Source: Candidatus Doudnabacteria bacterium (GTDB lineage: Bacteria; Patescibacteriota; Doudnabacteria; UBA920). From it: a stretch of 64,000 nucleotides of DNA. Below, piece by piece: positions 7,447 through 30,662 of the stretch (position 1 is the first letter of the stretch; each line of letters begins with the position of its first letter). The position numbers were made by a program, and so were the translations under genes. The DNA lies in contig CAWINB010000004.1 in NCBI GenBank assembly GCA_963837465.1, positions 330,853 through 394,852 on the forward strand, read 5' to 3'. A model generated the notes under the pieces. It saw only the letters and a list, made by a program, of their open reading frames with translations. It had not been told where the DNA came from and did no database searches.

Positions 7447-8247
7447 ATGCCCAAAATTCTTTTCATCGGTGACGTCGTCGGAAAACCCGGGAGAAAAATT
7501 CTTTCCCAGGTTTTGCCTGTGTGGAAAGAAAAATATAAGCCGGATGCCACCATTGTCAACGTGGAAAACCTGGCGCACGGCAAAGGGGTGACGCCGACAA
7601 CTTTGGCGGAAGTGGAAGCCCTGGACGCGGATTGTTTTACTTCCGGCAACCACATTTTTAAAAAAAAGGATTTATCCAACGAATGCTTTGATATATATCC
7701 AAAACTTATCCGTCCGGCTAATTTTGGAGACTCCCCGGCCGGCCACGGGTATTACCGCTTTGCCAAAGACGGTCGGCAATATTTGATAATCAACCTAAAC
7801 GGCCAGGTGTTTATGGAAAACCAGTTTGACGGCGAGATCGGGAACCCCTTTTTGGCCGTGGACAAGCTTATTTCCGAGCAGGGGCAAAAAGGTGATATAA
7901 TAATTGTGGATTTCCACGCGGAAGCCACCAGCGAAAAAGTATCCATGGGTATACATTTAAACGGCCGGGTCGCCTCCGTGTTTGGCACCCACACCCATAT
8001 TCCCACGGCCGATGCCAGAGTGCTGTCCGGCGGCACCGCTTACATAACCGATGTCGGAATGGCAGGAACCAGAGATTCGGTTTTGGGAGTCATTCCCGCA
8101 AACGCCCTTAAAAAATTTTTGGATTCCAGCGCGAAATTTGTAAATGAGATTCAGGAAGACGGAGTGCTGATGATAAACGGGGTGTTGATAGAGATTGGCG
8201 AGAATCAGAAAGCGATAAAAATAGAAAAGCTTTATCAGGAAATATGA
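7447..8247 (+). CDS. ymdB: YmdB-family metallophosphoesterase (TIGR00282-like)
   Basis: MPKILFIGDVVGKPGRKIL...NVENLAHGKG...GNHIF...DFHAEATSEK...GTHTHIPTADARVL. Lies directly after rny, as in Firmicutes. The first ATG at 7447 is preferred to the track start at 7423. Confidence 0.85.
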   Translation: MPKILFIGDVVGKPGRKILSQVLPVWKEKYKPDATIVNVENLAHGKGVTPTTLAEVEALDADCFTSGNHIFKKKDLSNECFDIYPKLIRPANFGDSPAGHGYYRFAKDGRQYLIINLNGQVFMENQFDGEIGNPFLAVDKLISEQGQKGDIIIVDFHAEATSEKVSMGIHLNGRVASVFGTHTHIPTADARVLSGGTAYITDVGMAGTRDSVLGVIPANALKKFLDSSAKFVNEIQEDGVLMINGVLIEIGENQKAIKIEKLYQEI

Positions 8248-8480
8248 GTTTAAAAGTTATGAATGAAGGACTGCTTCCTGTTTCAAAAATAGGCGCGCTA
8301 TGCATAGCTATTTTTGGATTACTTCTGATGTATGTAAGTAAATATTTTGAACGGATGCCCATTTTTTTAGCCGCCAGTTTAATTATTGGATTCTTATTGT
8401 TTTTCCAGATATTTTTATCCTCTTTATATAAAACTCTCAAAATCAAAAACAGGTATTTAATTTGGTTTGAGATAAAGTAA
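8244..8480 (+). CDS. Small hypothetical membrane protein
   Basis: 78-aa ORF with two hydrophobic helices. Its start overlaps the ymdB stop (ATGA). Confidence 0.3.
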   Translation: MSLKVMNEGLLPVSKIGALCIAIFGLLLMYVSKYFERMPIFLAASLIIGFLLFFQIFLSSLYKTLKIKNRYLIWFEIK

Positions 8481-8484
8481 CATT

Positions 8485-8853
8485 ATGGCTCCAAAATTCT
8501 TAAACGCATCTTTGTTCATCCTTTTTGGATCCCAAAACAAAGGCCATGCCGGCGCGGCTTCCGATTTTGATATCGGCATATTGGCGGATGAGCCTTTGAC
8601 CTTTGAACAAAAAAGCAAATTAAGCGAAGAAATTGCCAAGGAGTTTGGTTTTGCGGAAGATAAAATTGACCTTGTGGACTTAAATGAGGCTTCGCCTTTG
8701 CTGCAAATGGAGGCCGCTAAAAGCGGAAAGCTCCTTAAAGGAAAAGAATCGGATTTTTTTAAATTTAAACTTTTGGCGTGGAAACGTTACCAGCACACCG
8801 CGAAATTCAGAAGAATGAGAAAAGAGCACTTACAGCAAATATATGGGCAATGA
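8485..8853 (+). CDS. MNT-type nucleotidyltransferase (type VII TA antitoxin)
   Basis: GSQNKGHAGAASDFDIGIL nucleotidyltransferase motif (GS...D.D). Overlaps the downstream DUF86 gene. Confidence 0.75.
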   Translation: MAPKFLNASLFILFGSQNKGHAGAASDFDIGILADEPLTFEQKSKLSEEIAKEFGFAEDKIDLVDLNEASPLLQMEAAKSGKLLKGKESDFFKFKLLAWKRYQHTAKFRRMRKEHLQQIYGQ

Positions 8854-9294: not shown

Positions 9295-9825
9295 ATGCCC
9301 TCAAGATTTTTAAATCCAAGCGAGGTGGTGGCGCAGACCGGCCTGATGCAGGGGCAGGTTGTGGCGGACATGGGTTGCGGCAACGGTTTTTATGTATTGC
9401 CGGCCGCGCAGATGGTTGGGCCCACGGGCACGATTATTGCCGTGGATGTTATGGAACAAAAATTGGCTGCTACCATTTCCATAGCCAACCAGTTCGGTTA
9501 CAAAAACGTGCGCGTTTTGCAGGCGGATTTGGCCAAACCGCTTTTGGATATTCCGGAAAATTATTGCGACCTGGTCATTATCGGCAATATCTTTCACGAA
9601 ATCAGCCAGAAGGACCAGCTGATAAGAAATATTTACCGGATTTTAAAATCCCAGGGCCGCGTGGTGATAGTGGAATGGAAAAAAACCGCCACGCCTTTTG
9701 GGCCACCGCTGGACAAGCGCGTGGATCAGGAGAAAATGGAAATAATGCTTATGGAGGCGGGACTGCGCAAGGACAAAGATTTGCAGGCCGACGGGTATCA
9801 TTACGCGGTGTTGTTTGAAAAATAA
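9295..9825 (+). CDS. Class I SAM-dependent methyltransferase
   Basis: VADMGCGNGFY (motif I), IIAVDV, LKSQGRVVIVEW. Confidence 0.7.
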   Translation: MPSRFLNPSEVVAQTGLMQGQVVADMGCGNGFYVLPAAQMVGPTGTIIAVDVMEQKLAATISIANQFGYKNVRVLQADLAKPLLDIPENYCDLVIIGNIFHEISQKDQLIRNIYRILKSQGRVVIVEWKKTATPFGPPLDKRVDQEKMEIMLMEAGLRKDKDLQADGYHYAVLFEK

Positions 9826-9907
9826 TCTACAGAGTTGGCGCATTAACCGCGCTACAGAAGCCTACAGAACCTGGTGGCCCTGATTGTTTCTGTAGTTTTC
9901 TGTAGAT
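9825..9907. repeat. Composite palindromic intergenic element built from CTACAGA units
   Basis: atctacaga (9825-9833), ctacagaag, ctacagaac, then the inverted ttctgtag and tctgtagat (9899-9907). Followed by tataat at 9911-9916. Confidence 0.6.
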
Positions 9908-9934
9908 TAGTATAATGAGTAATTCTATAGTTTT

Positions 9935-10333
9935 ATGAATTTAAAATCATATTTTAACTCCCAATACCTTTTTCAGATTAATTCCGCCTTTATCAGCCCT
10001 GGCGAGAAGCTTTTTTTTCTGCTGGGCGTGATTTTGCTTTTGGTCGCCGTGGTCCTGAAAATATCAGCCAAGCTTGCGCCTACCCCCGTGGACTCCGGTT
10101 ACCGCAAAAAGTTTTACGTGCTGTTGCTGACCATCGGCCTGCTGGAAATTTTTTGGTACCTGCTGCGTTACGAGAACGTGGAGTTTTTTGGCAGCCGTTT
10201 TACGGCTTTCTTGTTCCTGTTCATCGGCCTGGTCTGGCTTCTGCGCGTTTTGCTGTCGATGTTAAAAAATTACCGACCGGCTAAAGTTGCCTGGGAAAAA
10301 GAACAGGTCAGGATGAAGTATTTGCCCAAATGA
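9935..10333 (+). CDS. Hypothetical membrane protein
   Basis: 132-aa ORF with three or four hydrophobic helices. Confidence 0.4.
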   Translation: MNLKSYFNSQYLFQINSAFISPGEKLFFLLGVILLLVAVVLKISAKLAPTPVDSGYRKKFYVLLLTIGLLEIFWYLLRYENVEFFGSRFTAFLFLFIGLVWLLRVLLSMLKNYRPAKVAWEKEQVRMKYLPK

Positions 10334-10360
10334 CAAAAATAAAAAGACAAATGTTTATCC

Positions 10361-10780
10361 ATGTTCAATCTTTTTAAACCAACAATCAGGAAACCAAAAT
10401 CTTTGGGTCAGCTGGGTGAACAGTTCGCCCAGGAAGAATATAAAAAGCTCGGTTATAAAATTATCGCGGCCAACGAGTACAATAAAAAAGGCAAACAACT
10501 TGGAGAGATAGATTTCATCGCCAAAAATAACGAATCCATAATATTTGTGGAGGTTAAGACCCGTAAAGATCGCCTGGGTAAATTTGGCACGGGCGCCGAA
10601 GCGGTTGATGTTTACAAACAGCGGAAACTGCTGGCAGCGGTAAAAATGTACTTTTTGCGCAATCCGGCAATGTCCGAACTTAAGCCCCGGATTGATGTTT
10701 GTCTTATGGAATTCGGCGAGCTTGACAAAAGCTTTAAACCTGCTAAAATAATAACGAATGCAGTAGAAGATTGGAACTGA
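10361..10780 (+). CDS. yraN: YraN-family (UPF0102) endonuclease-like protein
   Basis: GEQFAQEEYKKLGYKIIAANEY...GEIDFIAKNNESIIFVEVKTR fits the YraN pattern. Confidence 0.8.
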   Translation: MFNLFKPTIRKPKSLGQLGEQFAQEEYKKLGYKIIAANEYNKKGKQLGEIDFIAKNNESIIFVEVKTRKDRLGKFGTGAEAVDVYKQRKLLAAVKMYFLRNPAMSELKPRIDVCLMEFGELDKSFKPAKIITNAVEDWN

Positions 10781-10826
10781 CTGACGAGCGATGCTCGTCA
10801 TTTTAATTAGTAAGCCGCTGAAAAGA

Positions 10827-10893
10827 CGCTGATAGGTACGCTGAATAAACGCTGAACCGGCGTTTCAGCGACAAATCAGCGTACCTATCAGCG
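10827..10893. repeat. Composite palindromic intergenic element built from CGCTGA units
   Basis: Perfect 18-bp outer stem, cgctgataggtacgctga (10827-10844) / tcagcgtacctatcagcg (10876-10893), enclosing an inner cgctgaa/ttcagcg stem. Extra cgctga copies lie upstream. Confidence 0.65.
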
Positions 10894-10912
10894 ATAAATT
10901 AGCGCTTTAAAT

Positions 10913-12130
10913 ATGAATGAGCAACTAGAACAAGCTTTGGATCAGATTGCCGAAGAAAAAGGCATTAGCCGCGAGGATTTAATTTCTATGATAGAGGCGT
11001 CTTTGGCCGCGGCCTTCCGCAAGGATTACGGTGAAAAAGACCAGAATATCGTGGTGGAATTTAACCCCGAAACAATGGGCGCCAAGGTTTTTGACGTTAA
11101 AACCGTGGTGGAAACCCCAACCGAAGCCGAGGAAGACCCGCAAAAATTAATTGATTTGGAAGCGGCAAAACAAATCAAAAAATCCTATAAAGTGGGTGAC
11201 GAAATTAAAACCGAAATCACGCCAAAAACCGGCACCTCTTACGGCCGCATTGCGGCACAGACCGCCAAACAGGTAATCATTCAAAAGCTCCGCGAGGCTG
11301 AACGCAACGTCCAGTTTTCCGACTTTAAATCCAAAGAGCGCACTCTGCAAAACGGTATTGTGCAAAGAGTGGAAGGCGATACCGTGCTGGTGGATTTGGG
11401 CAAGGCCGCCGGAGTGCTGTTTCCCAGCGAGCAAATCCGCGGCGAGCGTTACGCCATTGGTCAGCGGGTAAAAGTTTTAATCCTCCATGTCGAACCGGCC
11501 ACCAAGGGCCCTAAAATTACCCTGTCCCGCTCGCATCCGGATATGGTCCGCAAGCTGTTTGAGCTGGAAGTGCCGGAAATTTATAACGGCAGCGTGGAAA
11601 TAAAAGCCATTGCCCGCGAGGCGGGATCCCGTTCCAAAGTGGCGGTAATTTCCACCCAGGACGGCATTGATCCCATAGGCAGTTGCGTAGGGCAAAAAGG
11701 CAGCCGCGTGCAAACCGTAATGGCCGAACTCGGCGGCGAGAAAATAGATATTATAGAATTTTCAGACGACACCGTAAAATTTATCGCCAACGCGCTTTCC
11801 CCGGCCAAAATTTTAAATGTTCAGCTGGATGAAGACAAAAAAGAAGCCAAAGTCGGCGTTTTGGAAGACCAGTTATCCCTTGCCATCGGCAAAGCCGGAC
11901 AAAACGTGCGGTTGGCCGCGCGGTTGACCGGATGGAAGATTGATATCAATGGGGAAAAATTGGCCGGAGATGCGGCATCAGAACCTGCTGCTGAAGGCGA
12001 AGAAGCAGAAACCGTTGCCCCCGAAACATCAGCCACGGAAGAAGCTCAAACCGACGCCGGCGGAGTAAGCGAAGGTACTTTGCAGGAAGCGGAGAACCCC
12101 GAAAAGCAGATGGAAGAAAAGGGAGAATAA
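10913..12130 (+). CDS. nusA: Transcription termination/antitermination factor NusA
   Basis: N-terminal NusA domain, S1 domain (GIVQRVEGDTVLVDLG), two KH domains (GSCVGQKGSRVQ, LAIGKAGQNVRLA) and an acidic tail. Confidence 0.95.
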   Translation: MNEQLEQALDQIAEEKGISREDLISMIEASLAAAFRKDYGEKDQNIVVEFNPETMGAKVFDVKTVVETPTEAEEDPQKLIDLEAAKQIKKSYKVGDEIKTEITPKTGTSYGRIAAQTAKQVIIQKLREAERNVQFSDFKSKERTLQNGIVQRVEGDTVLVDLGKAAGVLFPSEQIRGERYAIGQRVKVLILHVEPATKGPKITLSRSHPDMVRKLFELEVPEIYNGSVEIKAIAREAGSRSKVAVISTQDGIDPIGSCVGQKGSRVQTVMAELGGEKIDIIEFSDDTVKFIANALSPAKILNVQLDEDKKEAKVGVLEDQLSLAIGKAGQNVRLAARLTGWKIDINGEKLAGDAASEPAAEGEEAETVAPETSATEEAQTDAGGVSEGTLQEAENPEKQMEEKGE

Positions 12131-15599: not shown

Positions 15600-15628
15600 T
15601 TGACACCTTTTTCCAAAAGGTTTATAAT
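15600..15628 (+). promoter_or_regulatory. Consensus sigma70-type promoter, probable rRNA promoter
   Basis: TTGACA (15600-15605), a 17-nt spacer, TATAAT (15623-15628). It starts 22 nt outside the IS end and lies about 670 nt upstream of the 16S. Confidence 0.5.
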
Positions 15629-16293
15629 TGCTTGGCGGTTAGGAATTAAATCTTAACGTTTAAAACTTCAATAAACTTTTAGTTCAATTTTGCTCTTATG
15701 TAAGCGGGCATCGCTGATTATAGGAGATCCCTATTGGCACCTGGGAGACTGGACATTATCCACATTTAAGATGGATATGTTTTTTTTAGCCTCAATTTTA
15801 GACCCTTCAGGATCAAATTATAGAGGCTAATCCGCCGAAGCCTTGGCGAAGGCTGGATAACTAAGTTTGATCGCCGATAAATCGGCACGCTACGCCAATC
15901 ATCTTGGTCAAAGCAAAGTACCTCAAAATGAGATGCTCCGCTCCGCTCAGGATGCGTTCCTACGGAACTGTACCTTAACAGTTAAATAGTGATTAGAAAA
16001 CACTGAATACCGCCCGGTATTTAGTGTGTACAAAACCATCGCGTCTTGACCTATTTAAACCAGGTTGAGATGCAATGTTTGCGTCAATTCAATATGAGTT
16101 CAATGATATTCTGTGAATAACAGAAAAATGTTTTGTTAGGTTTACATTTTACAAAAATAAATCTAACGCCAACTTAACATCAATATTTATATTCGTGTTA
16201 AGAGGTTTGTCTTTTAGACAGATCAAACTTTCAATTTTATTTCCGTCCCGCCAAAGGCTGGGACAATTCAGGATTTATAATTGATTTCTAATA

Positions 16294-17860
<1,567 letters not shown>

Positions 17861-17872
<12 letters not shown>

Positions 17873-18137
17873 AAGGAACTTTTCTTGACTACACTGGTTT
17901 TCGAACTGTGTGTCAAGACATTCTGTTGGTCGTCGTCAATTATTTCGATTTTTGACGCAATCCTTTCTCAATAAGAAACGACGTAAACGTAAGTGGTTTT
18001 GTATAGCGGTAATTCTACCCATATTTAGCAATAAATATGGGCCTGAGCGCCTTTAATGCTCGGGGTCACTATTTAGCCGTTAAAAAACGGAAATTGCAAT
18101 TAAAAAGCCTGACTTCTACTACTGAAGTGAGGCTTTT
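17861..18137 (+). other. 16S tail + trailer + terminator segment, copy S-A
   Basis: gtcactatttagccgttaa (18065-18083) pairs 18/19 with the leader ttaacagttaaatagtgat (15975-15993). tggttttgta (17994-18003) pairs with the leader tacaaaacca (16029-16038). Terminator hairpin at 18107-18137. Confidence 0.75.
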
Positions 18138-19121
18138 ATGTTTTATAAGGAAAGTGTCGTAGAAACATCTACGAAAACCGACAGTAGGGTTTTGCCATCG
18201 TCCCCGGCTGTTTACAGCCCAAAGATGAGCGAGTTGGTTGATGGGTTTTTAAAGCACGGTCAGTTTGATTTAAGCTGGTCGGCTGGGACAGTCGCAAAAT
18301 ACGGTGAGTGTTTACGGATGACTATTCGGGACATCGGCGATTTGCCGGTAAATGAAATCCGTTTGGTTCACCTTACGGAATTAAAATCTAAAATAATAAT
18401 GCGCGGAGCCGGAGAGTCCAGAGTCGGCTCAATGGTTTTTGCGTTAAAAAGTTTTTTAAAATACTGCAAGGAAATTGTGGAGTTGGATGTGCTGGACTTT
18501 AACAAGATTACCCCGCCAAAACGCCATCGCCGGGAAGTGCTGTTTTTGACCAACGAAGAAATTCAGCGGTTTGTGGATGTTATAAAAATAAAAAATACCT
18601 GGGATGGGAAAAATAAAAAGAGTTGCGTCCGAATGGATGGTCTAAGGTTCAGGGCTTTGGTAGAAGTCTTGCTTGGCAGCGGTATGAGAATATCCGAGGC
18701 GTTATCGCTTAACCGGGGTAGTATAAATTTTGAAAAGAAAGAGGCAAAAATTATCGGTAAAGGTAGCAAGGAACGCACGGTATTTTTTAACGATCGTTCG
18801 TTGGAATGGGTTAGGTATTTATTGGAAGAAAGGAAGGACAGTCACGAACCTTTATTTCTTTCCCAAAAAGGCAACAGGTGGGATAAGGGAGAAGTTAATA
18901 AACTGTTTCAGCGTTATACTAAAAAAGCGGAAATCACCAAAAAATTAACGCCCCATATTCTGCGGCATACTATGGCCACAAACTTACTTTTTAACGGTTG
19001 CCCGATTTCCCACGTCAAAGAAATTTTAGGCCATGATAGGCTGGAAACCACGTGCCGCTACTATCTGGGTTTGGACAAGAGTAAGGCCAAGGAGGCTCAC
19101 GAAAAATTCTTGAATTATTAA
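18138..19121 (+). CDS. Tyrosine recombinase/integrase, class A (copy 1)
   Basis: GMRISEALSL (R), HILRHTMATN (H-x-x-R), LGHDRLETTCRYY (H and Y). 327 aa. Paralogs at 34943 and 47997. Confidence 0.9.
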   Translation: MFYKESVVETSTKTDSRVLPSSPAVYSPKMSELVDGFLKHGQFDLSWSAGTVAKYGECLRMTIRDIGDLPVNEIRLVHLTELKSKIIMRGAGESRVGSMVFALKSFLKYCKEIVELDVLDFNKITPPKRHRREVLFLTNEEIQRFVDVIKIKNTWDGKNKKSCVRMDGLRFRALVEVLLGSGMRISEALSLNRGSINFEKKEAKIIGKGSKERTVFFNDRSLEWVRYLLEERKDSHEPLFLSQKGNRWDKGEVNKLFQRYTKKAEITKKLTPHILRHTMATNLLFNGCPISHVKEILGHDRLETTCRYYLGLDKSKAKEAHEKFLNY

Positions 19122-19159
19122 AAAAATTTATTGAATAAATAGCTCAATTTCGCTATAAT

Positions 19160-19365
19160 TAGAATAATTGAATAGGTGCCTAACCCCATGGCTAAAACTA
19201 TGGGTATGGTAGAAGTAAAGAATCCTCAGCTACGTAAAGACGGTCTCTTAACCGCTCTCGTAGCTGAGGTGCGTGCGAAAGCATGCGGTGGTGTCGAAAG
19301 GCACTGCTGCGGTTGGGAGGCCCTTTTTGTATCCAACCGCAATTTAAAAACCTCAGCTACAACAA
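19160..19365 (+). ncRNA. Candidate structured leader RNA upstream of the type III mod gene
   Basis: tataat at 19154-19159. 11-bp perfect stem cctcagctacg (19224-19234) / cgtagctgagg (19259-19269). Two adjacent GAAA-capped hairpins (cgtgc gaaa gcatg, gtgtc gaaa ggcac). gcggttgg/ccaaccgc stem. A second cctcagctac at 19351-19360, 5 nt before the ATG. Confidence 0.35.
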
Positions 19366-21255
19366 ATGAATAACAAATCACTGATTTTTGAATTGCCCAA
19401 AATTGTGGAAGAGGGCAAAAAAGAAGTTGAAAAAATATTGGAACGGCTTTCCAGTCAAAGTCGGTTAGGTTTGCAGACTAATGAGCTGGTTCTACCGGCA
19501 AAAGATAGTGGCGGGCTTTTTCGCGGGCATATAGCAGAACAGAAAAACAATGAGTGGCTGAATCGCTTAATATATGGCGATAATTTGTTAGCTATGCAGG
19601 CTTTGCTTTCCGGCGATGAGCAGAGCGGTCTTGCCAGTATGCGTGGGAAAATAGATTTAATTTACATTGATCCACCGTTTGATAGCAAAGCTGACTACCG
19701 CACAAAGGTTACCTTGCCTGGCGTGGATTTGGAGCAAAAGCCAACAGTTATAGAACAATTTGCATACGCCGATACTTGGAAAGATGGCACCGTAAGCTAT
19801 TTGAAAATGCTTTATCCTCGTCTTGCTTTAATGCGCGAGTTGCTCTCCGAACAAGGCAGTATTTATGTGCATATTGATTGGCACGTCGGGCATTATGTAA
19901 AAATTTTACTTGATGATATTTTTGGAAAAAATAATTTTAGGAACGAAATAATTTGGTGGTATCTTTGGGGAGGAAGAGGTAAGACACAATGGAATAGCAA
20001 ACATGATAATATTTTATTTTATTCCAAGGATAATAATTGGATTTTTAACTTTAAGGATGTATTAGATGATCACAATTTAATGACAGAAGGGTCAAAAAAT
20101 AGGTTGAATTACAAAGGTGCGATGGTAACTACCAAAAGCGAATCCTCAGAAATACCCGAAGATAAAGTGCTGCCTTCTGATACTTGGTATATAGCAACCA
20201 TTAATGCAATGGCAAAAGAAAAATTAAATTATGGTACTCAAAAACCAGAATCTTTGGTAGAAAAAATAATCAAAGCATCTTCAAATGAAAATTCCATTGT
20301 AGCAGATTTTTTTGCGGGGAGCGGGACAACTGGAGCGGTGGCGGAAAAACTTGGACGGAGGTGGATTATGTCGGATATTGGCAAGCCAGCGGCTTTGATA
20401 ATGCGCAAACGGTTAATTGACCAAAACGCCAAACCGTTTTTGTATCAATCCATCGGCGACTACCAAAAAGAAGCGTTTACCTCCTCAAAGTTATACCGCC
20501 GGGTTGGCGACCTGGCCCAGGTGGTATTGCAACTTTACGGCGCAATCCCTTTTACAGAAGACCAAAGCCAAATGCGAAATTTGGGGTATATAAAAGACAG
20601 TAAAACTTTGGTAATGGTGGATTCGCCGAATAAAATGACCGGCCTTGCCACGCTTAAAAAAGCGCAGGAGCTTAAAGCCAGTTTTATGGGCGGATTTAAC
20701 AAAGTGGTGGTCTTGGGCTGGAATTTTACTTTTGATATTACCGAAGCTATTCATTCGCTTAACGATAAAAGCGTGGAAGTTTTAGTTATACCCCCGGATC
20801 TGTTAGATAAGTTAAAGAGCAAAGCTGATTACAAAGACTTGATTGACAGCGGTAAAATTCGTTTTTCCTCTTTGCAATATCTGACTTTAAAACCAATTAC
20901 GGTAAAAATATTGCCGGATGATAAAGAACAGTTGCATGTTGAATTAGATAATTATGTTTTACTTTCCCCAGACAACATACCTTTGGACGAAAAGGACAAG
21001 GAAAAATTAAAAGAAGTCATTGCTAAAGATCCATTGTCTTTGGTTGAATATTGGAGCATTGATCCCGATTATGACGGAGTTACTTTTCGCAGCCTATGGC
21101 AGGATTATCGGGAAAATGAAGACAATGACGCAGAGCCTTACCATGTTGTAAAATCGGTAGATTTGACTGTCCCCAAAAAGAAAGAAAAAAGAATTGTATG
21201 CGTAAAGGTCGTGGATGTTTTTGGTTTTGAAAGTATTGCGACCGAGGAAGTTTAA
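19366..21255 (+). CDS. mod: Type III restriction-modification methyltransferase (Mod)
   Basis: [11 protein letters not shown] (motif IV) precedes [20 protein letters not shown] (motif I). 629 aa, directly upstream of res. Confidence 0.85.
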
Positions 21256-21258
21256 CAT

Positions 21259-24171
21259 ATGCCATCACCAATCAGCATAGGCACAAGGGACATTCCCTTA
21301 AAACTTGCCAAGACAATTAGTGAGAAAGTAAATTTAGCTTGGGACAGTGGAGAGTTTTTAGACAAGACCACGGCCGTTACTCAAGATTTGCTAAAATTTT
21401 GGTTTACCGAACCACACATAGAAAACCGATATATTAATTTTCACTCCGGCCAGCGCCAGGCTATTTTAAACACCATTTATTTGCACGAAATTTTAAGCAC
21501 GAAGTCCGTTAAAGATATTTACGAGAACATAGAATTTGAACTGTTGCCGGAAATAGACATAGCCGAGCTAAAAAAGCCAAAATACGAAATTCCCAAATAC
21601 GCTATTAAGATGGCAACCGGGACGGGCAAAACATGGGTGATGCACGCCTTGTTAATTTGGCAATATCTAAACGCCAAATATGAAGCCCAAAAATCAGGAA
21701 AGTTTTCCAAGAACTTTTTATTAGTCGCCCCCGGCATAATCGTCTACGAACGGCTGCTGGATGCTTATTTGGGTAAGGAAAATGAAAATCGGGAACGCCA
21801 ATTTGAGCAATCTGATTTTTACCAGTTTAAGGATTTGCTCTTGCCTCCGGCCTTTAGGGAAGAATTTTTTGGCTTTATCCAGTCGGCCGTAGCCAAGAAG
21901 CAGGACATCGGCAGCAAGGTGACTGGTGACGGCCTGATCGCCATTGCCAACTGGCATTTATTTATGGGGGAAGAAGAATCGGAAGACAAACCCGTTTCGC
22001 CATTAGACAGTCCACAACAAATCCTCAAAGACATCATGCCAATTCGGCCGGGAGTATCCGGCGGCAATTCTTTGGATGCTTTAGATAGTGCCTATTGGGG
22101 CGGCAAGGAATTGGATTATTTGGCCAATTTGCCGGATTTAGTTTGTATAAATGACGAGGCACACCACATCCACGAAAATAAAACCTACGGGGAAGTCAGC
22201 GAGGTGGAATGGCAAAAGAGCTTGAATAAAATTGCCGCCTCCAAAGGCCATAAATTCATGCAGATAGATTTTAGCGCCACCCCTTACGACGTAACCGGCA
22301 GCGGGCAAAATCGTATCAAGCATTACTTTCCCCACATCATTGTGGATTTTAAGCTAAAGACGGCCATAGACGGCGGCTTTGTAAAGACCATAGCCATAGA
22401 CAAGCGCAAGGAACTTGTGGATTTGCCTTTAGACTTTAAATCGGTACGGGACGAAAACAATACCGCTATTGCGCTCTCGGACGGGCAAAAGCTGATGATC
22501 CGTGCCGGATTAAATCGATTAAAAATTCTTGAAACGGAATTTGTTAAATTCACTAAAGATGCCGATGGGGTTTCCAATAAATATCCCAAAATGTTGATCA
22601 TGTGCGAGGATACTAAAGTTACGCCATTGGTTGAGGCTTTTTTTCTGGACGAAGGCTTAAGCGAGGACGAGGTGCTTCGGGTAGATTCCAATAAAAAAGG
22701 CGAGATACCGGAAACGGAATGGAGAGAACTTAAACAAAAATTATTTAATATTGATAAGCATGATAAGCCTAAAGTTATTATTTCCGTGCTCATGTTGCGT
22801 GAGGGTTTTGACGTAAATAATATCTGCGTTATTGTCCCGTTGCGTTCGTCCGCCGCCCCGATTTTGCTGGAACAGACTATTGGCCGTGGTTTGCGGCTGA
22901 TGTGGCGGGAGCCGGAATATCGTGAAGCCAAAATGGACAATATCCGGCAATTGATAAAAGAAAAACGGGAACCGCAAAACTTGCTGGACTTGCTGTTTAT
23001 TGTTGAGCATCCGGCGTTTTTGCAATTCTATGAGGATTTAGACAAAGAAAGCATCGTAGAAGTTGGTGACATACCAGAGGGAGGGGTGTTGGGGGAAATT
23101 ATTAAGGTTGGCTTAAAACCCGACTGGCAAAAATATGATATGTATTGGCCGATCATCTTGCGTGATGCGGAAGATGAAATGTCCGGCAGCCGTCCGCCGG
23201 TTGAAAAAATGGAAAAATTTACCGTTTATGCGTTGGAAGATTTAAAGAAGTTTTTTCATAAAGGCGGCGAAAAATTCGTGTCCGAGGAGTTAACCGTTAA
23301 AACCCGTTTTGGGGAGTACATGGTAGATGCCAGCCTGTTTACTTCCCAAAGCTATAATGAGTATTTGCAGAAAATAATCCACGCAGTAGTCAATAGGACG
23401 GCGAAGACAAGTGCACGTGGGCATAAAGTTTACCCGACGTTACAAATAAACCAACTGCAATTAGTTGAAGCTTTGGATTTTTATATCCGCAATCTGTTGT
23501 TTGGTAACTCATATGACCCGTTTGTTGATAATAATTGGAAAGTGCTTTTACTGAAGAATGGCGTTGTTACCCAGCATATCGTCAAAGAGGTGGGCAAACT
23601 AATTTTTGAAATGCAGAATAACACTACCACGAGCGAGGCATTGGTAGAAAAGCGCCATTTTGCCGAAGTGGACAGTTTGAGGATGAGGGAAAATTATTCC
23701 TTGCCGATTGTAAAAACTATTTACGAAAGATTGCGCTACCCTTCTAACAAAGGCGGTTTTGAAAAAGACTTTTTAAGCTATGCGGATGGCGACGGGCAGG
23801 TGGAGGCGATAATTAAAATCGAAGAATACCAGCACACCTTTGCCGTTATCAACTATATGCGTTCCGATGGTTTTCTCGCCCAATACCACCCGGACTTTTT
23901 AGTGCAGGCGGTCAATAAAATCTATGTTATTGAAACAAAAGCCGACAAAGACATTGACGATAAAAATGTCCGGCAAAAGCAGCTGGCTACGCTGGATTGG
24001 ATTAAGCGGATCAACGGGTTAAAAACCGAAGACAGATTAAAAAAAGAATGGGAATATGTTTTGCTAGGTCAAAGCAATTTTTACGGTTTAAGCAAAAACG
24101 GGGCTTCCATAACTGAAATTTGCGAATTAGCCAAGGTTAGCGAGGCTGCGGTGACCGGCAGGCTACTTTAG
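21259..24171 (+). CDS. res: Type III restriction enzyme Res subunit (helicase-nuclease)
   Basis: Walker A MATGTGKT, DEAH box NDEAHHI, helicase C motifs (VLMLREGFDV, QTIGRGLR). 970 aa. Confidence 0.85.
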   Translation: MPSPISIGTRDIPLKLAKTISEKVNLAWDSGEFLDKTTAVTQDLLKFWFTEPHIENRYINFHSGQRQAILNTIYLHEILSTKSVKDIYENIEFELLPEIDIAELKKPKYEIPKYAIKMATGTGKTWVMHALLIWQYLNAKYEAQKSGKFSKNFLLVAPGIIVYERLLDAYLGKENENRERQFEQSDFYQFKDLLLPPAFREEFFGFIQSAVAKKQDIGSKVTGDGLIAIANWHLFMGEEESEDKPVSPLDSPQQILKDIMPIRPGVSGGNSLDALDSAYWGGKELDYLANLPDLVCINDEAHHIHENKTYGEVSEVEWQKSLNKIAASKGHKFMQIDFSATPYDVTGSGQNRIKHYFPHIIVDFKLKTAIDGGFVKTIAIDKRKELVDLPLDFKSVRDENNTAIALSDGQKLMIRAGLNRLKILETEFVKFTKDADGVSNKYPKMLIMCEDTKVTPLVEAFFLDEGLSEDEVLRVDSNKKGEIPETEWRELKQKLFNIDKHDKPKVIISVLMLREGFDVNNICVIVPLRSSAAPILLEQTIGRGLRLMWREPEYREAKMDNIRQLIKEKREPQNLLDLLFIVEHPAFLQFYEDLDKESIVEVGDIPEGGVLGEIIKVGLKPDWQKYDMYWPIILRDAEDEMSGSRPPVEKMEKFTVYALEDLKKFFHKGGEKFVSEELTVKTRFGEYMVDASLFTSQSYNEYLQKIIHAVVNRTAKTSARGHKVYPTLQINQLQLVEALDFYIRNLLFGNSYDPFVDNNWKVLLLKNGVVTQHIVKEVGKLIFEMQNNTTTSEALVEKRHFAEVDSLRMRENYSLPIVKTIYERLRYPSNKGGFEKDFLSYADGDGQVEAIIKIEEYQHTFAVINYMRSDGFLAQYHPDFLVQAVNKIYVIETKADKDIDDKNVRQKQLATLDWIKRINGLKTEDRLKKEWEYVLLGQSNFYGLSKNGASITEICELAKVSEAAVTGRLL

Positions 24172-24192
24172 CATTATGGATTGTAAAAATTT

Positions 24193-24369
24193 ATGTCACA
24201 TGAAGATTTAGACATTGACGAGTTCAAAAGAATTTTTGGAAAGTATTATGACAAGCCGCTTTCCGACCAAGATGCATATGAAGGCGCTTATGATTTGCTT
24301 AACGCTTTTAAATGGTTAGTAGATCAGGACGAAAGCAACAATCTAAAAATTCAGCCAAAAACTAGATGA
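24193..24369 (+). CDS. Small hypothetical protein, paralog 1 of a three-member family
   Basis: 58-aa ORF not in the track: MSHEDLDIDEFKRIFGKYYDKPLSDQDAYEGAYDLLNAFKWLV... It aligns with the next two small ORFs. Confidence 0.4.
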   Translation: MSHEDLDIDEFKRIFGKYYDKPLSDQDAYEGAYDLLNAFKWLVDQDESNNLKIQPKTR

Positions 24370-24533
24370 TTTCTCAAGAAGCGTTAGAAAAATATAAGGC
24401 TATTTACAAGGAAGAGTATGGTGCGGATATTTCAGACGCAGAAGCCTTGGATTTGGCCGTCAATCTTTTAACAATGATGAACGCAGTATATCGGCCGATA
24501 AAAAAAGAATGGGCTGAAGATGCTGACCTTTGA
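24366..24533 (+). CDS. Small hypothetical protein, paralog 2
   Basis: 55-aa ORF: MISQEALEKYKAIYKEEYGADISDAEALDLAVNLLTMMNAVYRPIKKEW... Its start overlaps the previous stop (ATGA). Confidence 0.45.
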   Translation: MISQEALEKYKAIYKEEYGADISDAEALDLAVNLLTMMNAVYRPIKKEWAEDADL

Positions 24534-24560
24534 ATTTAACAATCAAATTTAGATAAATTT

Positions 24561-24698
24561 ATGAAGGTATTTATTAGGTTAGTGTTAGGCTTAGTGGCAT
24601 TATTGTTTATAACTTTTATGTCGGCTGCTTTTGGGATAGGCGGGTTTTTGTTCACGCTCGGTTTGTTTGCGGTTATAGTTTATGCTTTTGCTAGGTAG
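24561..24698 (+). CDS. Small hydrophobic peptide
   Basis: 45-aa ORF: MKVFIRLVLGLVALLFITFMSAAFGIGGFLFTLGLFAVIVYAFAR, with two predicted helices. Confidence 0.3.
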   Translation: MKVFIRLVLGLVALLFITFMSAAFGIGGFLFTLGLFAVIVYAFAR

Positions 24699-24707
24699 CT
24701 ATTTTTT

Positions 24708-24893
24708 ATGATTTCAAAAGAGCATCTTGAAAAATATAAACAGATTTATAAAAACCGTTTTGGGAAAGAATTATCTAACCAAGAGGCTCTTGAGCAGGCC
24801 ACTAAGTTGCTTAGGTTAATAGAAATTATTTACCATCCCATGACCCAGGAAGAGCTGGATATGGTTAATAGGCGGAGACAGGAATTGGGTTAA
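24708..24893 (+). CDS. Small hypothetical protein, paralog 3
   Basis: 61 aa: MISKEHLEKYKQIYKNRFGKELSNQEALEQATKLLRLIEIIYHPM... It shares the LEKYK.IY....G...S..EAL pattern with paralog 2. Confidence 0.5.
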   Translation: MISKEHLEKYKQIYKNRFGKELSNQEALEQATKLLRLIEIIYHPMTQEELDMVNRRRQELG

Positions 24894-24980
24894 AAAGCTT
24901 TGACTAAAGTTTGCCATCACAAAGCTTGGAATTTTGCTATAATTAAGAGGCACAAAGCCTCTTTTAATTTAACCCCCTCT

Positions 24981-26114
24981 ATGAACTATATCGAAGATTG
25001 GAAATTATATCTTTGGAAAAAACTGTTGCTGAAATCTGATTATTTCAGCCAGCAAAACCTTAACCTATTTCAGGCTATCCGTAATTTTGTATTTGGCCAG
25101 GACTGGGGCGGAACTGTAGGCAACGATTTGATAGCACAAGCATTAATTGAAATGAGCAATTTTCAGCCGCCCGCTGTTGAGATTACCAACGTTAGGATGT
25201 TAAAAGATTACCGAGATTACCATTACAAGAGATTGTCTGAAGAAGAAGCAAAAAAGGCGCTCGCGGCTGCCACAAGCTCAAGCTATACAAATCCAAATTC
25301 CAAAACCGTCCACGTTGTTTTGCAGCCCAACCACGGATTGCCTAAAGAAGTAGACCAGAAGCTGGAGAAACTTGAGAAGGACAAAAATCTGGCTGACTTA
25401 GATTTGGCGGACTTAAAAACGATGGCCTATAATGCCAAGCTCCCTCAATACTTATGGAATTACGTTAGCTTTGATGCGAAATTCCACAAAGAGCCTTTAG
25501 AAAAAAAGCTAAACGATTACATCGACTCTTTTATCCAAGGGGATTTGGTAGCGCCAAGGGGTTTTAGACTTTACGGCCCAAGACAGCAGATGGAGAGAAT
25601 GTGGCAAACTATACAGGTATTAGCGACTGGTCAGGGCTCGAAAAACCTCAAAGTTACTTTGCGGGACATTGTGCCGCCGGGACGTAGCCCAGTAAATGAG
25701 CATAATCTCTATAAATTTTATGAAATGATACTGGCTTTGGAGCGCAGTGGCGACATCACAGTTACTGATATAGTCGGCTCCGAGGCAGTTATTTCCATAG
25801 CCCCAAGGCATTTAAAAAATCTCGACCCGGACTTAAGGATACCCCCTGCTTTTGCTAAATTTGAAGGCAAGTTTGTCGAACATGAACTTCATTGGTATTG
25901 CCCTATATGCGGCAACAAGATTAAAGTCTTTGAGGACAAAGACACGCTGGCGGAAACCCTTACTATCCGCACCAAACGCTGTAAAAACGGCCACGAAAAC
26001 AAAATAATGATTATCGATGATAAGCTGTATTTGGAAAATACGCCCATTGCCGTTTCAGAAGCAATGGCACACTTTAAGCGCAGGAATAAAGTCCAAAAAC
26101 CAGATGGCGTTTGA
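24981..26114 (+). CDS. Hypothetical protein with a C-terminal zinc ribbon
   Basis: The first ATG at 24981 is preferred. C-terminal CPICGNK...CKNGH Cys/His pairs. Confidence 0.45.
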   Translation: MNYIEDWKLYLWKKLLLKSDYFSQQNLNLFQAIRNFVFGQDWGGTVGNDLIAQALIEMSNFQPPAVEITNVRMLKDYRDYHYKRLSEEEAKKALAAATSSSYTNPNSKTVHVVLQPNHGLPKEVDQKLEKLEKDKNLADLDLADLKTMAYNAKLPQYLWNYVSFDAKFHKEPLEKKLNDYIDSFIQGDLVAPRGFRLYGPRQQMERMWQTIQVLATGQGSKNLKVTLRDIVPPGRSPVNEHNLYKFYEMILALERSGDITVTDIVGSEAVISIAPRHLKNLDPDLRIPPAFAKFEGKFVEHELHWYCPICGNKIKVFEDKDTLAETLTIRTKRCKNGHENKIMIIDDKLYLENTPIAVSEAMAHFKRRNKVQKPDGV

Positions 26115-26376
26115 CAGTAAGTTATTTTGGGTGTAAAATGTAAGCAGTTAATCTTTTACAATTTAATTGTTTCGCCTTATCGGTCTTGCCAGGCGGCGAG
26201 AGGTAAGGAAGGAATGATTATCCAAAACTTTTTAGACGGTTATACCCAAAGCTATTTGGCTCTGCCAGGAGGCGGAGGAGTAAGCGAGTAAGTATAACGC
26301 CATTAAGCCAAGATAATAGAAAAATCGGACCGTTGATTCGGCCTGGTCTTCTTGTTATTTTGGCTTTTTTCGTTTG

Positions 26377-26405
26377 ACCAGCGCTTTTAACGGCGCTGGT
26401 TTTTG
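26377..26405 (+). terminator. Rho-independent terminator
   Basis: accagcgc ttttaacg gcgctggt followed by tttt. Confidence 0.6.
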
Positions 26406-26425
26406 CGTTTTACGCAAGAAAATGG

Positions 26426-26502
26426 GGCAATTAGGTTGCTGCCTTGGGATCTGGTTTGCTCATAGAGGGGTTATCCTGAAACCGGGCAGCACCCTAATTG
26501 CC
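26426..26502. repeat. Long hairpin upstream of the 393-aa ORF
   Basis: ggcaattaggttgctgcc (26426-26443) pairs 17/18 with ggcagcaccctaattgcc (26485-26502). The loop is 41 nt. Confidence 0.6.
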
Positions 26503-26524
26503 TCTAAATAATCAAAATCCCTCT

Positions 26525-27703
26525 ATGATGATTGACAGTATACGTCTAAGAATTTCTATATTTAGTAGCGTGAAAAATAACTTCTTTTTTAGAGAAAAAA
26601 GAGGGAGCCTTGATTATGATAATAGTAATAGACAGAGGGTTAAACAATTTATACGAACCAATTTTAAGTGGAGCGAACAACAACGGTCTCAGGGTAAATA
26701 TATCCCAAAATATTGGACAGAAACCAACAGCTTTGAGGGCGGTAAACAGTATCTTATTTTTGAATTTTCAGTTCCAAAGTTCTTGCAGGGACATAATTTA
26801 GTCGAAATTGCAGAAACCATGCTGCCTGTCTTGGTGGATCGTCTCGAGGACTTCTGTAAAATAATTCAACTATCAGTTGCGGAGGTAGATATTTTGGGTG
26901 CGCAAGTCACGATGGTCGCATATTGTCATAATGTTCCGATAGCCCATCTGGCTCCTTCGCAAGAAGTTATGAAATTGTTATCTGGATATACCTATCGTTT
27001 TCGTTCTAAATTTCGGCCCGAGCAAAATGAATTGGGACAGATTACTCATTTACAACTCGGTAATAATACTTCCCATGTTACTGCTTATGATAAGTTGCCG
27101 GAGATTATAGTGCATGCCCGAACTACTGAGGAATTGGAAATTGCCAAAATAATTAAAAATAAACAGTTGCCAAATCCTTACGGAAAAATTATTCAAGACA
27201 CCATTAGGTTTGAGCTCACTTTACATAATACTGTGTCGGTAAGGCAAGCAATGAAAAAATTTTATGGTGACAAGCCTTTTTACACACTCAAGGATGTGTT
27301 CAAAGCCGATATTGCGGCGGCATTATTAAAGTTGGAAATGGAGGAAATTTATAATCACCCCCTTAAAAATATAGCTGCAAATTCTAATTATGACTTCCGA
27401 AAACTAAATGATGAGGTCGGTAAATTTATTCGAGACCGCCATCAGGACGGCAAACTGATTGGCTTGCTGGAACAGGCCACCCTTGTTCTACACGCCGGGG
27501 GCTGGGCGGCGGTCAGAACTTATTTAGCGAAAGGTTGTTGCCGCCGGACTTTGCAATACCGGATAGCTGAACTACGCGAAATAGAAAAAATTGGAATTAA
27601 TTTGGGAACGCCAAATGAAAAAATTATGGAATATATTTTAAACCAATTTGGCATTGGAAAAACTAATTTACTTCCTAAAGGCCAACAATTATTGTTTAGC
27701 TAA
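26525..27703 (+). CDS. Hypothetical protein (weak suspicion of a replication initiator)
   Basis: 392 aa. The N-terminus MMIDSIRLRI recalls the MIDW... start of gene II/X-type replication proteins. I could confirm no catalytic motif. Confidence 0.4.
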   Translation: MMIDSIRLRISIFSSVKNNFFFREKRGSLDYDNSNRQRVKQFIRTNFKWSEQQRSQGKYIPKYWTETNSFEGGKQYLIFEFSVPKFLQGHNLVEIAETMLPVLVDRLEDFCKIIQLSVAEVDILGAQVTMVAYCHNVPIAHLAPSQEVMKLLSGYTYRFRSKFRPEQNELGQITHLQLGNNTSHVTAYDKLPEIIVHARTTEELEIAKIIKNKQLPNPYGKIIQDTIRFELTLHNTVSVRQAMKKFYGDKPFYTLKDVFKADIAAALLKLEMEEIYNHPLKNIAANSNYDFRKLNDEVGKFIRDRHQDGKLIGLLEQATLVLHAGGWAAVRTYLAKGCCRRTLQYRIAELREIEKIGINLGTPNEKIMEYILNQFGIGKTNLLPKGQQLLFS

Positions 27704-27916
27704 TTTATATGCAACTGCCATGTTTATCTATAGCCAACAAAAACCATACAGTCTATGCGTCTTTTGTCTCCCTAAGTATTACGTCAATACACGTGCAATC
27801 TTTTGCACATTTTCACAGAGAATAATTGTGCAAGTTATAAAGCGCAGCTTAGGCAATATATGTGCAATCGCAAAAAGCCAAAATGTTACAAATCAATGAC
27901 TGAATAAAGTTGTCTC

Positions 27917-28885: not shown

Positions 28886-28962
28886 GCAGGCAAACTACCT
28901 ATGGATTGAGTGGTTTCTAAGATAGTTTACCCCTTATTTTATAGGGTTTTTATGATTTTGGC

Positions 28963-28991
28963 TTGACAGAAGCCATAAAATCAGGTATAAT
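28963..28991 (+). promoter_or_regulatory. Consensus promoter upstream of the DGR target gene
   Basis: TTGACA (28963-28968), a 17-nt spacer, TATAAT (28986-28991). Confidence 0.55.
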
Positions 28992-29128
28992 TAAAAGTTA
29001 ATTTTGAGACTGGAAATTGAGCTATCAAAGTTTATTTAATGGCTGAATTGCCTGTCCCAACTGTTGGGATTTGGTGTGCCGTGGCTTTCACGGATGCAGT
29101 TAATGTTCCTATAAATCAATAAGGAGGG

Positions 29129-29806: not shown

Positions 29807-29853
29807 TCCCTCGGCTCTGCCGCTGGGTTCTGGACTCTTGGCGCTTCGCATTG

Positions 29854-29894
29854 CCCCGCATTTTGACTTCGGTCAGGATGCGGGGTGTTTTTTT
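29854..29894 (+). terminator. Terminator after the DGR target gene
   Basis: ccccgcat...atgcgggg stem with an inner tgac ttcg gtca, followed by a T7 run. Confidence 0.7.
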
Positions 29895-30147
29895 GTCCAA
29901 AATTTTGAAAGTTTGGTATAATTTAAGTAGATGGGATTTATGCCTGCGGTTAAGGCTTCAGGTGACCACATCTCGCATTGTTAAAAAACCAGAGTATCGG
30001 CGGCTACGGTTTCCGGTAGAGTGTTTTTTAACAAATCTTAAAAAGAAGATACTCGGTGCAAAGTATTGGCGGGCTTTAAGGCCCCAAATAAAATACAACC
30101 CCAAGAGTATTCAAGGGGTGGTGGCTTGGAATATACTTTGCATAATC

Positions 30148-30276
30148 CTGCTCGATGACAACCGTAACCGCAACGTGGCTTACTTCAACTGGAACGACAA
30201 GTCGCAGCGTTGGGTGCTCAACTTCAATTGGGTCGACAACAACTTCAATCGCAACGATCGGTTTGTTGTTCCCCGC
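30148..30276 (+). repeat. DGR template repeat (TR)
   Basis: Rich in AAC/AAT codons. Identical to the VR except at adenines. The last 19 nt (tcggtttgttgttccccgc) are A-free and identical in both copies. Confidence 0.9.
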
Positions 30277-30644: not shown

Positions 30645-30662
30645 GTTGATAAAATTTCCGTT

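Follow-up and report, generated by a model that had tools for sequence, protein, structure and literature searches.

Putative integrative elements arrayed at the 3' end of a Doudnabacteria 16S rRNA gene carry a likely replacement for the trailer strand of the rRNA processing stem

The 16S rRNA gene of Candidatus Doudnabacteria bacterium, the sole one visible in this bacterium, is probably the target of mobile elements that replace the sequence following the gene with a functional equivalent of their own. We analyzed a stretch of 64,000 nucleotides from this organism (hereafter, the window; NCBI GenBank assembly GCA_963837465.1, contig CAWINB010000004.1, positions 330,853 to 394,852 of the forward strand), in which the full-length 16S gene occupies positions 16287–17870 on the forward strand (Rfam SSU_rRNA_bacteria, 1274.6 bits, model positions 1–1533). 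We consider it likely that site-specific integrative elements, inserted successively at the 3' end of this gene, make up an array at positions 17861 to about 59947, and that each of them would resupply the trailer half of the stem from which the 16S precursor is processed. Three of the units encode an Xer-like tyrosine recombinase, and strand exchange would most likely occur within CACCTCC(TTTCTAAGGA), a site formed by the last bases of the mature 16S rRNA, including the anti-Shine–Dalgarno sequence. Integration would keep the 16S sequence and sever the gene from its downstream flank. Because everything downstream is thereby cut off, each element would carry a substitute directly after the core: the first trailer bases, four hairpins, three leader-pairing blocks, and an intrinsic-type terminator. 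The element-borne trailer would then re-form with the 16S leader three helices (A–C), equivalent to the long leader–trailer stem normally used for RNase III processing of the 16S precursor, so that the precursor could still be folded, trimmed, and terminated. According to this mechanism, the processing stem obtains its 3' half from the element adjoining the 16S gene, previous arrivals and their trailers have been pushed downstream, and later ones integrate into the regenerated site.

The exact 17-mer CACCTCCTTTCTAAGGA is found in the window at positions 17861, 34663, and 47721 (three matches versus 0.13 expected by chance), and all three copies are co-oriented and in tandem. Its first 10–12 bases are the 3' end of the 16S gene, with the anti-Shine–Dalgarno CCTCC included, and are followed by the first bases of the trailer. 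We refer to these copies (17861–17877, 34663–34679, and 47721–47737, all on the forward strand) as attachment cores. The target itself is intact, as the 16S gene matches the Rfam model from end to end, and the core is the same as the 16S ends of related loci. After each copy comes a segment of 276–280 nt that terminates at the ATG of an open reading frame (ORF) of the Pfam Phage_integrase family. The trailers contained in these segments (17871–18137, 34673–34942, and 47731–47996) are thus directly followed by integrase 1 (18138–19121, 327 amino acids [aa], E = 1e-39), integrase 2 (34943–35929, 328 aa, E = 1e-39, 59 per cent identical to integrase 1), and integrase 3 (47997–48968, 323 aa, E = 2e-40), all on the forward strand. 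A first-pass annotation, made by a model that saw only the letters and their ORFs, had described the three segments as moderately similar in sequence with their RNA features kept, and this description is accurate: pairwise identity is 62–68 per cent, and the same hairpin set is present in all three.

When compared to dinucleotide shuffles, the three trailers have folding z-scores of −5.4, −5.2, and −3.8, and four hairpins plus a predicted terminator are kept in each of them despite the sequence divergence. In trailer 1, hairpins 1–4 are located at 17883–17918, 17934–17957, 18018–18041, and 18042–18064, the leader-pairing blocks C', B', and A' at about 17975–17990, 17993–18004, and 18065–18083, respectively, and the terminator hairpin at 18103–18137. 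Trailers 2 and 3 have the same hairpins and blocks, with terminators at 34907–34942 and 47963–47996. The first TTCG (UUCG in the RNA) loop starts at offset 39 in all three segments and the second at offset 83, 85, or 86, in agreement with the annotation. The stems quoted there for hairpin 1 are also present, but their size of 4–6 bp was an underestimate, since the hairpin has a stem of 12–15 pairs that lies within a further AGGAA/UUCU helix. Hairpin 3 was recognized correctly in copy 1 (CCCATATTTA/TAAATATGGG, 18018–18041) and copy 3 (CCGTATTTA/TAAATACGG, 47878–47899), but copy 2 has only a looser CTTAT/ATAAG stem (34817–34838). Hairpin 4, the terminator hairpin, the third leader-pairing block (ACGTAAAC), two integrases that lack trailers, and three additional CACCTCC joints were absent from that annotation.

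To examine structural conservation beyond the window, we gathered approximately 60 distinct homologous trailers from public genomes and metagenomes. The earlier proposal that covariation preserves the hairpins is borne out in 18–38 homologs, in which 82–86 per cent of alignment cells are paired, versus 36–48 per cent when partners are slid. In a plain MAFFT alignment of 18 sequences, 81.6 per cent of the cells of hairpins 1 and 2 are paired (versus 64.5 per cent in shuffled alignments and 40–47 per cent with slid partners), 94 cells are changed on both sides (versus 30.5), and the covariation score of 0.487 (versus 0.198) was matched in none of the 500 shuffles, a count that should not be read as a probability. 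In a covariance-model alignment of 38 copies, which is biased toward its own structure and is thus a weaker test of these two hairpins, 85.5 per cent of the cells are paired (versus 59.5 per cent shuffled and 36–48 per cent slid), and double-sided changes occur at least once in 25 of the 29 pairs. For hairpin 4 and the terminator, the corresponding values are 93 per cent paired, 85.6 per cent shuffled, and 26–62 per cent slid. RNAalifold recovered only four inner pairs of hairpin 1 from the plain MAFFT alignment, and the tests of this hairpin relied on a hand-written structure and the covariance model. Hairpin 3 folds in all 11 of the long-type trailers, with stems as unlike as CCCATATTTA, CTCCATATAATC, CTCGCAAACCCTTGAT, and CTCCGTGCATG, for which reliable alignment failed; hairpin 4 likewise folds in 11 of 11, with differing stem sequences. 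The slid-partner controls, together with the variety of pair types at each position, leave little doubt that the trailer structure is conserved.

The trailer blocks that do not vary are complementary to the 16S leader. A promoter-like site upstream of this leader (TTGACA, 17 nt, and TATAAT; 15600–15628 on the forward strand, with 12 of 12 consensus matches) is, by its position, the putative rRNA promoter. The annotation had claimed that invariant blocks pair with the leader, and we found this to be the case: the 18-mer TCACTATTTAGCCGTTAA, which is invariant in all three trailers, has its complement at 15975–15992 with two mismatches (the 18-mer and its complement together account for four sites in the window, versus 0.05 expected), and GGTTTTGTA stands opposite TACAAAACC at 16029. 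The third invariant block, ACGTAAAC, pairs with leader positions 16075–16090. On the leader, the strand of helix A is TTAACAGTTAAATAGTGAT (15975–15993; 18–21 bp with the distal block of all three trailers, where the trailer strand is GTCACTATTTAGCCGTTAA), that of helix B is GTACAAAACCAT (16028–16039; 9–12 bp with (GT)GGTTTTGTA of each trailer), and that of helix C is ATGTTTGCGTCAATTC (16075–16090; 9–14 bp with (GA)ACGACGTAAAC of each trailer), all on the forward strand and 200–310 nt upstream of the 16S gene. When leader positions 15965–16100 were co-folded with each trailer, helices A, B, and C were formed in a nested arrangement, C inside B inside A, with 45–52 intermolecular pairs; with trailer 2, for example, the helices comprise 21, 9, and 13 bp, respectively. 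The invariant blocks (ACGTAAAC, GGTTTTGTA, and TCACTATTTAGCCGTTAA) are exactly the trailer strands that pair with the single host leader. Pairing would therefore explain why the parts of the trailer that must match one leader are identical in the three copies, while the self-contained hairpins can diverge as long as changes are compensated.

The leader strand of helix A opens with the boxA-like sequence CTTAACAG. It resembles TGCTCTTTAACAA, the boxA of the Escherichia coli rrn operons. Homologous leaders read (TG)CTCTTTAACAGCTGAATAGTGA, and the TGCTCTTTAACAG of relatives matches the E. coli boxA. The complementarity is not limited to the window. A leader–trailer helix of 15–27 bp is present in 15 of the 15 fetched loci that hold a 16S gene, and the best helix in these loci joins the distal trailer block to a leader block located 60–370 nt upstream of the gene. 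The helix sequence varies between lineages on both strands (CATTTCAGTCACTATGTAGTTG in L006, AGGACTAATCGCAAAAGATTGT in L105, and CTTATTCCCAATAAATTGTTTG in L084), and cognate helices have a mean of 21 pairs, versus a median of 15 in non-cognate combinations. In a gap-free alignment of seven related loci (Group I), 83 per cent of the cells are paired, versus 27–44 per cent with slid partners, and six pairs are changed on both sides, versus 2.2 in shuffled alignments, a number matched in 0 of 500 shuffles. The pairing of helix C is also found in L004 and L020. Folding of whole-length leader–trailer duplexes was uninformative and was replaced by windowed and gapless helix searches.

Integrases related to those in the window are linked to 16S ends in other genomes. 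The sequence CACCTCCTTTCT occurs within 360 nt upstream of the integrase in 13 of the 15 relatives that are at least 60 per cent identical, in 24 of 39 at 50–59 per cent, in 18 of 55 at 45–49 per cent, and in none of the 66 below 45 per cent; on public contigs, about 55 related integrases are preceded by this 16S tail. In at least 14 loci, the integrase module directly follows a 16S gene that is complete or nearly so. All of them are in Patescibacteria, where they are labelled as Doudnabacteria, Saccharibacteria, Moraniibacteriota, Parcubacteria, Patescibacteria, or unlabelled metagenome contigs, and the 16S gene appears as the target in Patescibacteria only. T precedes the core at every 16S joint, and mostly A does so at the remaining joints; in non-16S joints the likeness to the rRNA locus always begins at CACCTCC. 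Arrays of at least two units are also present in L006, L008, L069, L089, L110, L140, and L015/L003.

A single clean insertion, with the displaced native trailer downstream, is seen in the Saccharibacteria locus L006. There, an insert of 4.9 kb lies between perfect repeats of 187 nt, each beginning at CACCTCC and ending with the distal block. After the proximal copy come a terminator and an integrase; after the distal copy come a different terminator, no integrase, and then ordinary genes for an M23 peptidase, a ZIP transporter, and PilM. Similar inserts are present in L089 and L008, where the distal trailer is again a displaced one that comes with a separate terminator and lacks an integrase. 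Between the two copies in these loci, hairpins 1 and 2 show compensatory changes. In addition, near-identical modules occur in different hosts. Window positions 47721–49411 are 88.8 per cent identical to positions 9727–11415 of the related Doudnabacteria locus L005, with the match beginning at the first base of the CACCTCC core, and integrase 3 is 97 per cent identical at the amino-acid level to the integrase behind the L005 16S gene, whereas identity between the host 16S genes is only about 84 per cent. The L005 module, the displaced trailers, the covariation, and the generality of leader pairing all support the proposal of the first-pass annotation that the elements bring a replacement strand for the processing stem.

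The same loci bear on where the strands would be exchanged. The sharp similarity boundary and the bare joints point to a crossover within the core. The main formal alternative is an exchange at the distal block TCACTATTTAGCCGTTAA, which would mean that the 16S gene always keeps its native trailer and that the element merely possesses a trailer-like left arm. This possibility is suggested by the identity of the 18-mer in all three copies, and the L006 repeat spans the whole trailer and so cannot place the crossover by itself. Yet the likeness to the rRNA locus starts sharply at CACCTCC in every non-16S joint of all lineages, the match between unit 3 and L005 begins at that very CACCTCC base, and the joints ending at 46056, 51865, and 59947 have nothing in common beyond CACCTCC(TTTCT). 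Moreover, the L008 and L089 copies are identical beside the core and diverge further on, and the distal block is wholly different between lineages, whereas the core is not. A distal crossover fits these data worse than a crossover in the core, and we regard it as very unlikely.

The arrangement could also be imagined to have arisen with no mobile element at all, by segmental duplication or homologous recombination of the region downstream of the host 16S gene together with a resident recombinase gene. The tandem, co-oriented copies and the long perfect repeat in L006 would be compatible with such an origin, which nonetheless strikes us as extremely improbable: the copies in the window are only 62–68 per cent identical to each other, whereas one of them is 89 per cent identical to the module of another host; the units contain cargo typical of islands (two restriction–modification systems, a reverse transcriptase, toxin–antitoxin genes, a rolling-circle replication protein, ParB, and insertion sequences); and linkage of the integrase clade to 16S ends extends across several classes of Patescibacteria.

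The catalytic residues of the recombinases are intact. In the integrase alignment, the columns R184, K208/K211, H273, R276, H299, and Y308/Y309 are invariant, leaving the R..K..HxxR..H..Y signature intact. All scores against Xer models fall below the equivalog cut-offs of the respective NCBIfam models (XerA, 176.7 bits versus 220; XerC, 158.2 versus 335; XerD, 145.3 versus 330), as does the score against the integron-integrase model TIGR02249 (84.5 bits versus 265). The closest solved relative of the integrase is XerA (E = 1e-20), and the exact integrase protein has no record in the contig index. The units may still be capable of excision and integration.

The claim that every integrase unit carries a trailer needs to be qualified, as it holds for three of the five integrase genes in the window. 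The other two, at 27917–28885 and 39633–40682, have neither a trailer nor a 16S tail upstream, and nothing related to the core was found in the sequence around them. These second-type Xer-like integrases are about 41–42 per cent identical to integrase 1 and are located inside units 1 and 2, where one adjoins the gene for a rolling-circle replication protein and the other a parB gene. Relatives of the second type are situated 5–8 kb downstream of the first integrase in L001, L002, L024, L084, and L086–L088.

The 3' end of the trailer abuts the integrase gene. The terminator candidates are hairpins of 8–14 pairs followed by TTTT(T), and they fold in all three trailers and in the homologs; a simple consensus scan flagged none of them. 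In the window, the integrase start codon lies 0–1 nt past the T-run (18103–18140, 34907–34945, and 47963–47999), and in other lineages it follows within a few nucleotides. The GAGG ribosome-binding site of the integrase lies within the 3' arm of the terminator hairpin, both in the window and in the approximately 60 homologous trailers. Because the T-run abuts the ATG and the GAGG is part of the terminator stem, integrase expression is probably damped and dependent on read-through, and we speculate that synthesis is kept low in this way.

The same arrangement would suit a different explanation, namely that the 270 nt are a DNA or mRNA feature of the element only, consisting of an attachment-site arm and an integrase 5' leader that damps synthesis, and that the likeness to a trailer is a relic with no role in 16S maturation. 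Such a feature could explain why the ribosome-binding site is placed in the terminator stem and the T-run against the ATG in some 60 trailers, why copies that are not beside a 16S gene keep the full structure, and why modules of the acidobacterial type lie far from any rRNA gene. A leader serving the integrase alone, however, would have no need of three blocks matching a sequence located 1.9 kb away. The blocks that do not vary are precisely the ones with complementarity to the host leader, in a nested order, leader and trailer change together between lineages, and the displaced native trailers share the architecture even though they have no integrase. We consider an element-only function unlikely.

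Several observations nonetheless weigh against successive insertion of elements that each resupply the trailer. The joints at 46056 and 51865 have only CACCTCC in common with the cores, with no trailer and no integrase after them, and joints of the form CACCTCC-NNN-CGGCTACA were found in none of the 239 other loci. At the end of the array (59936–60017), there is no displaced native trailer, unlike in L006, L089, and L008; the native trailer of this window has either been lost, or the host now relies on the trailers of the elements. Trailers away from the 16S gene are kept as well as the first one, and the role of the structure may accordingly lie, in part or wholly, with the element. In Acidobacteria, the module was never seen beside a 16S gene, and no rRNA or tRNA gene is present within 10 kb in the seven loci scanned. 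Neither a circular form nor an empty site was seen for this host. Close relatives of the integrase were found in none of the sequenced phages, sequenced plasmids, or IMG/VR entries, where the best identities are at most 39 per cent (IMG/VR) and at most 30 per cent (sequenced plasmids and phages). The covariation counts given above come from related sequences, and one of them from a model-fitted alignment. Finally, the processing role is proposed by analogy with known rRNA leader–spacer stems, by which the precursor would be transcribed through the trailer and the stem would be cut by RNase III.

The nearest counterparts of these elements are genomic islands and prophages whose insertion into the 3' part of a tRNA or tmRNA gene regenerates that gene (the Islander/TIGER class; PMC4383910, PMC7192596). 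As in those islands, a tyrosine integrase is found beside the regenerated target, together with an element-borne copy of the 3' segment of the target; a displaced fragment marks the far end; and repeated integration builds tandem arrays. The direct repeats of the target 3' segment at unit ends are also shared (here the 17-mer in three copies and three shorter cores; in L006, 187 nt; and likewise in L089 and L008). Three differences stand out. The target here would be a 16S rRNA gene, of which only about 10–12 nt of mature RNA are replaced. The approximately 260 nt that are resupplied belong to the precursor, are absent from the mature RNA, and must match a leader 1.9 kb upstream. Lastly, the recombinase is short and Xer-like, with its best matches to the XerA, XerC, and XerD models, all below the cut-offs.

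The long-range complementarity can be likened to that of the E. coli rrn operons, in which the stem formed by the leader and the spacer is the RNase III site and boxA serves as an antitermination element. Both systems have long-range complementarity around the 16S gene, strands that covary, and a boxA-like sequence at the start of the outer leader strand (CTTTAACA here). Unlike in E. coli, the 3' strand is located on mobile DNA and ends in a predicted terminator instead of running into tRNA and 23S genes, and no 23S gene accompanies the 16S gene in the window, where the RNA gene scans detected no 23S, tRNA, or tmRNA gene.

Among Xer-related systems, integrative mobile elements exploiting Xer (IMEX), such as the CTX phage at dif, lack a recombinase gene of their own and depend on the host XerCD acting at dif. 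The elements described here resemble IMEX in the Xer-type recombination at a short and highly conserved chromosomal site and in the formation of tandem arrays but encode their own recombinase, and their site is inside an RNA gene. They resemble integrons in having an Xer-related recombinase and co-oriented units, some of them integrase-less, at one site by a strong promoter; unlike in integrons, each main unit has its own co-oriented integrase, and no attC-like folded sites were seen. Mobile DNA that is specialized on rRNA genes is also known from eukaryotes, in which the R1 and R2 retrotransposons and Pokey are specific to ribosomal DNA (reviewed in PMC10946416). R1, R2, Pokey, and the introns in rRNA genes of Patescibacteria interrupt the gene or are spliced out, whereas in the window the gene is intact and the flanking precursor appears to have been swapped.

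Integrating elements are generally regarded as having no access to rRNA genes. The large island surveys consulted give tRNA, tmRNA, and protein-coding genes as targets, and not rRNA genes; no rRNA gene is among the targets named in the text of the TIGER survey. In the open-access literature, we found no description of integration into a 16S gene; as our coverage was that of open-access text, an rRNA-gene version of the tRNA-island strategy may have been described before.

If the proposed mechanism is correct, the 16S end, which is among the most conserved bacterial sequences, would constitute a new class of universal landing site, and the elements would embody a second solution to the target-gene problem, in which the long-range processing stem of the precursor is restored instead of the mature RNA. 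The trailers would then amount to a natural experiment that separates the parts of an rRNA trailer constrained to match the leader from those constrained only to fold, and the islands would bring defence genes (restriction–modification, toxin–antitoxin, and reverse transcriptase) into Patescibacteria with their small genomes. A compact integrase of 323–328 aa with a 17-nt site present in most bacteria could also serve genome engineering. More tentatively, and with considerable doubt, we can envisage a widespread family with Xer-like integrases that lands at the near-universal anti-Shine–Dalgarno end of 16S genes and carries a portable rRNA-processing module, made up of a terminator and of strands complementary to a leader with boxA. 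In hosts like the present one, no native trailer would remain, so that maturation of their sole 16S precursor would depend on mobile DNA; integrase expression would be coupled to read-through transcription initiated at the rRNA promoter; and the elements could survive only in genomes whose 16S and 23S genes are unlinked, perhaps aiding the unlinking.

There is also a practical effect on assemblies, since many metagenome-assembled contigs break exactly at the 16S tail. The contigs L001, L002, L008, L024, L092, L095, L098–L100, and L110 open 1–230 nt into the 16S tail and continue with the trailer and the integrase. Because assemblies break at the 16S gene, the linkage would be hidden from routine genome surveys.

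Within the array, unit 1 (17861–34662) encodes a DNA methylase with a ResIII helicase, the rolling-circle replication protein with its second-type integrase, a reverse transcriptase, and BrnT, and its right end (34594–34662, forward strand) lies directly 5' of core copy 2. Unit 2 (34663–46049) encodes ParB with the other second-type integrase and a C5 methylase with a PstI-like endonuclease, and unit 3 (47721–51858) a Mutator-type transposase and AbiEii. Three further CACCTCC joints (starting at 46050, 51859, and 59936), none of which has a trailer, delimit two integrase-less units. The bare joint at 46050–46056 (forward strand) begins a unit at 46057–47720 with a HopA1-like ORF, and that at 51859–51865 (forward strand) a unit at 51866–59935 with an rve transposase, a SocA antitoxin, and genes for metabolism. 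The array closes with a last core, CACCTCCTTTCT (59936–59947, forward strand), which has no trailer after it and is followed by unrelated sequence and a LytR-family gene. At positions 46050–46069 and 51859–51878, CACCTCC is followed by ATACGGCTACAAC or CTCCGGCTACAGA and then by a short terminator-like hairpin.

The HopA1-like unit of 1.7 kb (45889–47727), which has a single ORF and no integrase, is bounded on both sides by right ends of approximately 170 nt. These right ends (45889–46056 and 47541–47727) are roughly 80 per cent alike, and each terminates in AACACCTCC; the unit looks like one that the integrases of other elements could move in trans. A 76-nt right-end module that includes the core is 100 per cent identical between 34594–34669 and 51790–51865, and the sequences upstream of the two copies differ, which suggests recent recombination or gene conversion.

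Some right ends contain a leader-like motif just 5' of the core (CTTTTCAAACTAAATAGTGACTCC at 59886–59908 of the window and TTCTTTCAACAAATAGTGA at 14680–14698 of L006). The idea that right ends act as leader mimics for the next trailer was rejected as a general feature on the basis of 31 joints, in which the mean longest helix to the distal trailer is 10.0 bp for the last 90 nt, versus 10.3 and 10.3 bp for the next two 90-nt stretches upstream; in a 22-nt duplex scan, energies were no better than those of mismatched controls.

In loci of the acidobacterial type (L012, L013, L014, L035, L037, L108, L134, L140, L152, and others), the tail and trailer are situated between two co-oriented integrase genes that are about 1.3–1.5 kb apart, in the order integrase, approximately 100 nt, core, trailer, and integrase. 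In L016 and L017, an acidobacterial-type integrase pair occurs without the tail. The pattern ACACCTCCTTTCTARGGA had two viral hits, and neither is a trailer: the hit in L241 corresponds to the ribosome-binding site of an oppositely oriented gene, and the one in L240 is at a contig end, with no trailer blocks after it.

The region of unit 1 that encodes the reverse transcriptase (30174–31693) is 74.5 per cent identical to positions 1–1522 of L004, which are located upstream of the 16S gene of that organism. The 16S gene in the window has an AT-rich insertion of approximately 100 nt near its 5' end (about 16455–16545), and the L005 16S gene contains a group I intron (8071–8566). Two copies of the LOOT RNA motif (Rfam RF03000) are present in the window at 689–802 and 19177–19305 (73.7 and 60.8 bits, respectively), the second of them 56 nt past the stop codon of integrase 1. 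A third copy is found on the minus strand of L005 (16987–17107), where no integrase adjoins it.

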